From a virus: DNA of 40,134 nt. The first letter of the stretch is position 1, and the number at the start of each line of letters is the position of its first letter. The DNA is taken from the UHGV virus genome UHGV-0210680; one strand, written 5' to 3'. Below, in pieces: positions 7,227 to 7,481 of the stretch. The notes beneath the pieces were generated by a model. It was not told the origin of the DNA. It saw only the letters and a program-made list of their open reading frames with translations, and searched no databases. The position numbers were made by a program, and so were the translations under genes.

Positions 7227-7481
7227 ATGACACACATGATCTTTCGTCATGGCGACATGAAGAAGTGGAAAGGCGTTGGCTACGACTTTGAAATCGTGAA
7301 AGCCGAAGAGATTCAGGAATATCTGGATGCTGGTTGGTTTTCACATCCTGATGACCTTTTGAAGGATGTTGCAGAGCCAGAGCCAGAGCCAGAGCCAGAG
7401 CCAGAGCCAGAAGAAAAACAGCGTAAAAAGCCTGGTCGAAAACCTAAGGCGGCAGCAGATGAACCTGACAACGAAGGGTGA
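7227..7481 (+). CDS. small acidic protein with (Glu-Pro)6 repeat
   Basis: 84-aa ORF with GGAG RBS upstream of the ATG at 7227; contains an in-frame (GAGCCA)6 tandem repeat; overlaps the gp4 start. The 7179 start given by the ORF track would read through the coat terminator. Confidence 0.45.
7374..7409. repeat. perfect hexanucleotide tandem repeat (GAGCCA)x6
   Basis: Six contiguous identical GAGCCA units seen directly in the sequence, encoding [12 protein letters not shown]. Confidence 0.95.

Follow-up and report, generated by a model that had tools for sequence, protein, structure and literature searches.

The (GAGCCA)6 array between the coat gene and gene 4 of a P22-like phage genome is, as judged by comparison with its relatives, a slippage-prone in-frame hexanucleotide microsatellite (VNTR). 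We consider it probable that this VNTR belongs to a genuine accessory gene in the late operon of P22-like enterobacterial phages, and that slippage by whole units varies a loosely constrained Glu-Pro spacer in the encoded protein. Replication slippage adds or removes whole GAGCCA units, by which Glu-Pro dipeptides are gained or lost while the reading frame is kept. The (EP)n spacer would set a folded N-terminal module of ~45 aa apart from the basic Pro/Lys motif KKPGRKPK, and the array would be free to drift because the length of the spacer is under loose constraint (0–24 units in nature, “loosely constrained” being a reading of natural variation only). In these terms the array is a fairly ordinary coding microsatellite for a proline-rich spacer, and its class is already known.

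The window, i.e., the whole stretch of 40,134 nt that was analyzed, represents a P22-like (Lederbergvirus-type) phage of E. coli, with IME10, Dewey, Bas106, APC_JM3.2, and Louie as its nearest relatives. The array was found exactly as the sequence-only reading had described it, as six uninterrupted GAGCCA units within a small ORF. Tandem Repeats Finder ranked it as the top-scoring tandem array of the window (7372–7411, period 6, 6.7 copies, 100% matches, score 80). In 100 dinucleotide-preserving shuffles the 36-mer was never matched, even when three mismatches were tolerated, and it is therefore not a product of chance. The probability of an artefact of assembly or sequencing, or of low-complexity sequence arising by chance, is negligible: short-read assemblers can mis-size repeats, but 36 nt lie well inside a single read, and the array recurs, invariably in whole-unit length classes, in >200 complete genomes, in eight phage records, and in 243 IMG/VR stretches. 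The earlier remark that such a repeat is unusual in a phage structural region holds for the window, although prophage genes with in-frame hexamer VNTRs are well known as a class. GenBank record MG197996 already labels the array as a repeat_region. No paper was found on the array locus, the small ORF, the WDGH domain described below, the repeat unit, or EP repeats in phages, and the phiGT1 paper contained nothing on the array locus. Minus-strand ORFs running across the array (GSGS..., WLWL...) were considered and rejected as by-products of the repeat. The features of the region are listed in Table 1.

Table 1. Features in and around the array-bearing gene (positions are those of the window)
Feature	Position	Strand	Details
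Scaffold gene	4976–5887		PF09306; upstream of the coat gene
P22-type coat protein gene	5887–7182	+	PF11651, E 7e-165; upstream neighbour of the small ORF
Terminator-like GC hairpin, UUCG loop and T run	7188–7213	+	-18 kcal/mol, z -3.7
GGAG Shine-Dalgarno of the small ORF	7217–7220	+	6 nt 5' of ATG 7227; GGAG conserved in all genera
Small late gene	7227–7481	+	84 codons and stop; PHROG 1175 (unknown function)
N-terminal folded module, aa 1–48	7227–7370	+	AlphaFold2 and alignment
(GAGCCA)6 perfect hexanucleotide array	7374–7409	+	GAG CCA = (Glu-Pro)6, codons 50–61 of the small ORF
C-terminal tail	7410–7478	+	Basic Pro/Lys motif conserved in distant relatives
AAGG Shine-Dalgarno-like sequence of gene 4	7446–7449	+	9 nt before ATG 7459
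Gene 4 (head-tail adaptor / tail accessory factor gp4, 166 aa)	7459–7959	+	PF11650, E 1.7e-58

Comparative data indicate that the small ORF is a genuine gene. Its product matched the PHROG 1175 profile with an E-value of 9.5e-37 (residues 1–82 on profile positions 1–72 of 72), and 378 relatives of the protein were present in a large protein collection. Of 5,426 complete E. coli genomes, 217 were found to carry the gene, which RefSeq annotates there as a hypothetical protein flanked by the capsid and gp4 genes; the same coat-ORF-gp4 order was seen in Shigella, Citrobacter, Kluyvera, Yersinia, Buttiauxella, and Rahnella. On a distant high-GC contig, too, a PF11650 gp4 homologue is immediately preceded, and overlapped, by an ORF that shares this N-terminal module. 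When 37 distinct DNA versions of codons 1–45 were compared, the variable sites were distributed as 21/8/40 over codon positions 1/2/3, and this bias indicates a translated frame under purifying selection. The ORF listing extends the frame upstream to a GTG at 7179, a codon within the coat stop/terminator region; from its conservation, ATG 7227 is the start of the small gene. An E. coli allele (P0001) carries a 10-codon tandem duplication within the N-terminal module, which on its sequence shows that further slippage or duplication events occur in this gene.

The distribution of the gene among isolated phages is narrow. It was found in only eight records, which represent six distinct phages, and no homologue of the small protein was detectable in P22 itself or in the other P22-like phages of the phage collection. 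It is thus an accessory gene and cannot be a core component of P22 assembly. Searches of Pfam and NCBIfam with the small protein gave compositional sub-threshold matches only (PARP, TonB, E2, DnaX). The Procyclin / PARP model (PF05887), for example, scored 19.3 bits against a cut-off of 100, which reflects the composition of the EP run and not membership of the family. The PADLOC defence-system models gave no match to the small protein, its WDGH variant, or its high-GC relative.

The stop codon of the coat gene occupies 7180–7182, and the terminator-like hairpin stands directly 3' of it and is kept in relatives of other genera. No promoter-like site was found between this hairpin and the ATG of the small gene, which must therefore be read from the late transcript. 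Having no promoter of its own, the small gene would be expressed from late transcripts that pass the coat terminator hairpin, and it would be translated just ahead of gene 4 and overlapping it. A moron with its own promoter was rejected as an explanation, as only 13 nt, without a promoter-like site, separate the T run of the terminator from the ATG.

The predicted protein consists of an N-terminal module, the (EP)6 spacer preceded by KDVA, a basic motif, and an acidic end. An AlphaFold2 model built from a 17-sequence alignment placed a β-hairpin (residues 2–8 and 19–25), a helix (26–34), and a short helix (43–48) in the N-terminal block, with a pLDDT of about 87–90. From residue 49 onward, no secondary structure was predicted and the pLDDT was about 49–57. 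Invariant or nearly invariant residues of the module were G16, Y19, D20, G36, W37, H40, P41, and D42. In the alignment of relatives, the layout of N-module, acidic-Pro linker, and basic motif was kept at 34–69% identity, with an acidic, proline-rich stretch of very variable length and a basic motif of the form K-K-P-G-[RP]-K-P-K (KKPGRKPK in the window). The alignment and the model thus place the array between a folded module and a basic C-terminal motif, in keeping with the proposal of the sequence-only reading that it serves as a linker of variable length. That reading had also described the ORF as ending in a basic tail; a basic core is indeed present, but the tail then ends acidic (DEPDNEG). 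From the model, (EP)n is inferred to form an acidic, proline-rich, non-globular spacer. By analogy it may be extended like a polyproline-II helix, and so stiff rather than floppy, low pLDDT values being equally compatible with a rod and a coil.

This analogy is with TonB, whose (Glu-Pro)n-(Lys-Pro)m spacer adopts the shape of an extended polyproline-II rod (PMC5413942; Kohler et al. 2010 cited there). In both proteins a Glu-Pro run is followed by a basic Pro/Lys segment, and together they link two functional parts. The two are, however, not homologous: the NCBIfam TonB models scored 11.3–12.3 bits against cut-offs of 265–315, through the EP tract only, and the small protein has neither a transmembrane anchor nor the TonB C-terminal domain, and a single basic motif in place of a KP array. 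The TonB spacer tract is not known to be a perfect DNA microsatellite. The Ala/Pro linkers of 2-oxo-acid dehydrogenase E2 are likewise low-complexity, Pro-rich, extended linkers between small domains, but here the resemblance is compositional only (TIGR02927, 8.9 bits against a cut-off of 423), and the small protein has no lipoyl or catalytic domain. It is this compositional resemblance that explains the name “dihydrolipoamide acetyltransferase” on three records of the family (P0026, P0050, and P0054).

A 201-aa variant (PHROG 3769) was observed in the same slot between coat gene and gp4, for example at 677–1282 of L007 (a prophage of E. coli OkiPb01675) and also in L008 and L009. It combines this N-module with an inserted WDGH domain (PF25311, E 1e-39), an (EP)1–4 tract, and an identical basic tail. 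RefSeq shortens this variant to its C-terminal half in some genomes (L008 and L009), where the full frame is open.

The number of repeat units differed widely between related phages. In the six close phages, there were 6 units in Dewey, 5 in HZ41, 8 in APC_JM3.2, 8 in IME10, 5 in Louie, and 2 in Bas106; the flanks were 93–98% identical and all length differences were multiples of 6. Across 88 loci drawn from IMG/VR, phage records, and E. coli chromosomes, the range was 2–24 units, with two E. coli prophages carrying 20 and 24 perfect units. At the other extreme, an orthologue from Citrobacter (L102) has no EP tract and its N-module is joined straight to RGRKPK. The sequence-only reading had proposed that slippage would alter the Glu-Pro number without a frameshift, and had named an identical copy number in all relatives as an observation against this. 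The relatives instead held 0–24 units, and all 97 related alleles over this range were in frame with an intact C-terminal tail, which strongly confirms the proposal. Since a 6-nt unit leaves no allele out of frame, the array does not act as an on/off switch, and a phase-variable switch of the neuO type was rejected.

The pattern of variation also points to its mechanism. Nineteen pairs of loci were identical across 1,019 nt of flank, yet 12 of these pairs differed in copy number (e.g., 11 vs 4 and 9 vs 13), and array length therefore changes faster than the flanks accumulate point substitutions. Most units were identical (510/572 were GAGCCA), and where a synonymous unit occurred, whole arrays could be homogenised for it, as in (GAACCA)10–12 of L058, L070, and L078 and (GAGCCT)8 of Yersinia proxima. 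Whole-unit polymorphism together with homogenised arrays indicates replication slippage with concerted evolution. The distribution of copy numbers was peaked, with modes of 4–7 units in loci and 4 in protein clusters, and some stabilising selection on spacer length is possible.

The same data could be read as an adaptive contingency locus, in which diversifying selection on spacer length, through matching of a host or defence target or through evasion, maintains the hypermutability. The purity of the arrays, their very wide range (0–24 units) and fast turnover, and the retention of microsatellites in genera whose proteins are only 48–80% identical would fit such a role. However, slippage by itself should likewise keep arrays pure and persistent above a threshold length, changes in copy number have no on/off consequence, and the Citrobacter orthologue does without the EP tract altogether. 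Nor did an informal comparison show an association of length with host or lineage. We regard selection for hypermutability as unlikely, and drift of a slippage-prone spacer as the better account of the array.

Within this phage group, the closest well-studied parallel is the poly-psi VNTR of neuO in CUS-3, a P22-like prophage of E. coli K1, where a 7-nt unit is present in 2–93 copies and varies by slipped-strand mispairing (PMC3046976). Every third copy number of the neuO heptad is in frame, which creates an on/off switch, and the number of heptads scales the activity of the enzyme (PMC3046976). Both systems have a short tandem repeat in a coding region of a P22-like prophage, subject to slippage and encoding a variable peptide extension that is dispensable for the fold. 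They differ in that the 6-nt unit keeps every allele in frame and in that the gene described here is an accessory gene of the late operon, whereas neuO encodes a lysogenic-conversion enzyme. Hexanucleotide VNTRs are also used in MLVA typing of E. coli O157 and Salmonella, and several of these are located in prophages or coding sequences. The GAGCCA array resembles such loci in its 6-nt unit and its whole-unit, frame-preserving polymorphism among near-identical strains, but differs in being located in a phage morphogenesis operon and shared across genera. No paper listing the GAGCCA locus was found.

The 3' end of the small gene is closely interwoven with gene 4. The two ORFs overlap by 23 nt, the stop codon of the small ORF (7479–7481) lying 20 nt past the gp4 ATG, and the last codons of the tail carry the ribosome-binding site and start of gp4, with AAGG formed by Lys-Pro-Lys-Ala codons of the small ORF. 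Downstream of gene 4 follows gene 10 (PF11134). ATG 7459 was confirmed as the start of the gp4 match, and the array thus indeed lies 50 nt upstream of the gp4 start. From this proximity, an effect of the array on the initiation of gp4 translation had been suggested. The array would then act as an RNA-level tuner of gene 4, with copy number shifting mRNA structure or ribosome traffic and hence the dosage of the adaptor. Apart from the short distance, the overlap of the ORFs makes translational coupling probable, and the predicted unpaired probability of the gp4 initiation region was 0.31–0.33 with 0–2 units and 0.48–0.52 with 4–24 units. This difference is, however, small and amounts to a single step from n ≤ 2 to n ≥ 4, with no further change up to 24 units and no gradient, and it comes from thermodynamic folding of naked RNA, while ribosomes translate through the stretch. 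The array also ends 37 nt before the gp4 Shine-Dalgarno sequence, outside the ribosome footprint; it is still kept in Citrobacter and Kluyvera, where the small ORF stops before the gp4 ATG; and it persists in the WDGH variant, where 1–4 units only are seen. Support for an influence on gp4 initiation is weak at best, and we hold a tuning function at the RNA level to be distinctly improbable.

Alternatively, the array could belong to gp4 itself, if gp4 started at ATG 7366 and was extended at its N terminus by the repeat, read as (Ser-Gln)n. From this codon on, the gp4 frame is open (a 197-aa ORF), the start is used in three deposited annotations (Dewey, Louie, and IME10), and the GAGTCA substitution in the array of Louie is synonymous in the SQ frame. 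Against this, the match to the Pfam gp4 model begins at residue 2 of the 166-aa form, AAGG abuts ATG 7366 with no spacer, and the short gp4 is annotated alongside the small ORF in the RefSeq prophages and in two phage records. Moreover, orthologues from Citrobacter, Kluyvera, and MGYG genomes have no upstream in-frame ATG, their gp4 starting 3 nt past the stop of the small ORF, and the flanks of the array are conserved across genera as protein in the EP frame. An extended gp4 is thus very unlikely, and the array is better assigned to the small gene as a Glu-Pro spacer. In the records of Dewey (PQ850600), Louie (PQ850616), and IME10 (NC_019501/JF974339), gp4 is annotated from the upstream ATG with the array read as (Ser-Gln)n, and the small gene is omitted or cut down to a spurious 45-aa ORF. 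In APC_JM3.2, gp4 is labelled “recombinase RmuC.” From the sequences, the extended-gp4 and RmuC annotations are probably wrong.

Leads to the function of the small protein came from its N-module. Fold and sequence searches against solved and viral structures returned nothing for the small protein, and a phmmer search of 1.8 billion representatives with the 49-aa module returned few relatives, namely small phage proteins of the same layout and eight larger multi-repeat proteins. In these eight, a similar module (...ELQxYLxxGW...) is repeated 3–5 times (library E 9e-7 to 3e-4), and five of them carry GIY-YIG or HNH nuclease signatures, with the repeats C-terminal to the nuclease domain. Homing endonucleases have DNA-binding modules C-terminal to the nuclease domain. 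An hhalign comparison of the N-module with the repeat modules gave a probability of 96%, a value inflated by the selection of the module set by motif. The GIY-YIG/HNH-like proteins P0129, P0131, P0134, P0135, P0136, and P0138 were seen to contain 3–5 tandem copies of a ~37-aa module (...W/Y-I-N-x-G-x-x-x-K-x-V-x-x-x-E-L-Q-x-Y-L-x-x-G-W-x-x-G) that resembles the N-module of the small protein and is covered by no Pfam model.

DNA binding, putative for the repeat modules themselves, is accordingly no more than a lead for the small protein. A role in head completion or on DNA is the weakest of our inferences; it would follow from the fixed position beside gp4 and from the kinship of the N-module with the repeats of homing endonucleases. 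The basic motif was compared with the AT hook, which has an Arg-Gly-Arg-Pro core with basic flanks; the window reads K-P-G-R-K-P-K and has no GRP core. Only one distant relative (P0132) has a canonical AT hook, RRGRPPK, while KPGPKPK occurs in others. A more elaborate scenario would make the small protein a DNA-binding head-completion factor, in which the N-module is a free-standing homing-endonuclease module, the tail a minor-groove-type anchor, and (EP)n either an acidic spacer of tunable length or a mask that covers the basic tail intramolecularly, with its length setting the engagement of DNA or of the portal-gp4 complex. We consider this scenario unlikely. Were it true, phage populations would gain a standing and rapidly reversible spectrum of alleles.

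As a clean, fast-evolving length marker, the array separates otherwise identical P22-like prophages of E. coli and related genera, and it could be used for fine-scale typing or for tracking of prophage lineages. It also highlights a conserved family of late genes, PHROG 1175, and its WDGH-domain sibling PHROG 3769, which are always immediately upstream of gp4. Were the length of the spacer to matter, the array would tune a phage morphogenesis factor in graded steps through slippage, rather than switch it on and off.

Several further observations were made on the relatives and in the remainder of the window. The high-GC relative of the small protein (L092, 3983–4309) ends in the motif LKAAEEAGKKRKGV, for which there is no Pfam model and which recurs in ORFs after capsid genes on unrelated phage contigs (L104, 2483–2923; L106, 2318–2959). 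Assignment of this C-terminal part of the high-GC relative to an HeH/Rho_N-type DNA-binding motif had no Pfam support and was dropped. In the window, the ORF in the gp26 position (9377–10225) encodes 282 aa with heptad-like repeats (HE.RI..AE / HETRI...). The gp26 of P22 is shorter than this, and the ORF may represent a longer variant of the tail needle. At 26732–26815 lies an imperfect hexamer tract (GCTTCT-like, 14 copies, 65% matches); read on the minus strand, it would specify a low-complexity, coiled-coil-like segment rich in Ala, Glu, and Lys. Finally, two clusters at 32910–32941 and 32976–33004, 66 nt apart, each contain about three direct copies of the 11-mer TTGTCCAACGG/C. They adjoin an A+T-rich stretch in the early/replication region and, by their sequence arrangement, look like iterons or operator-like binding sites.
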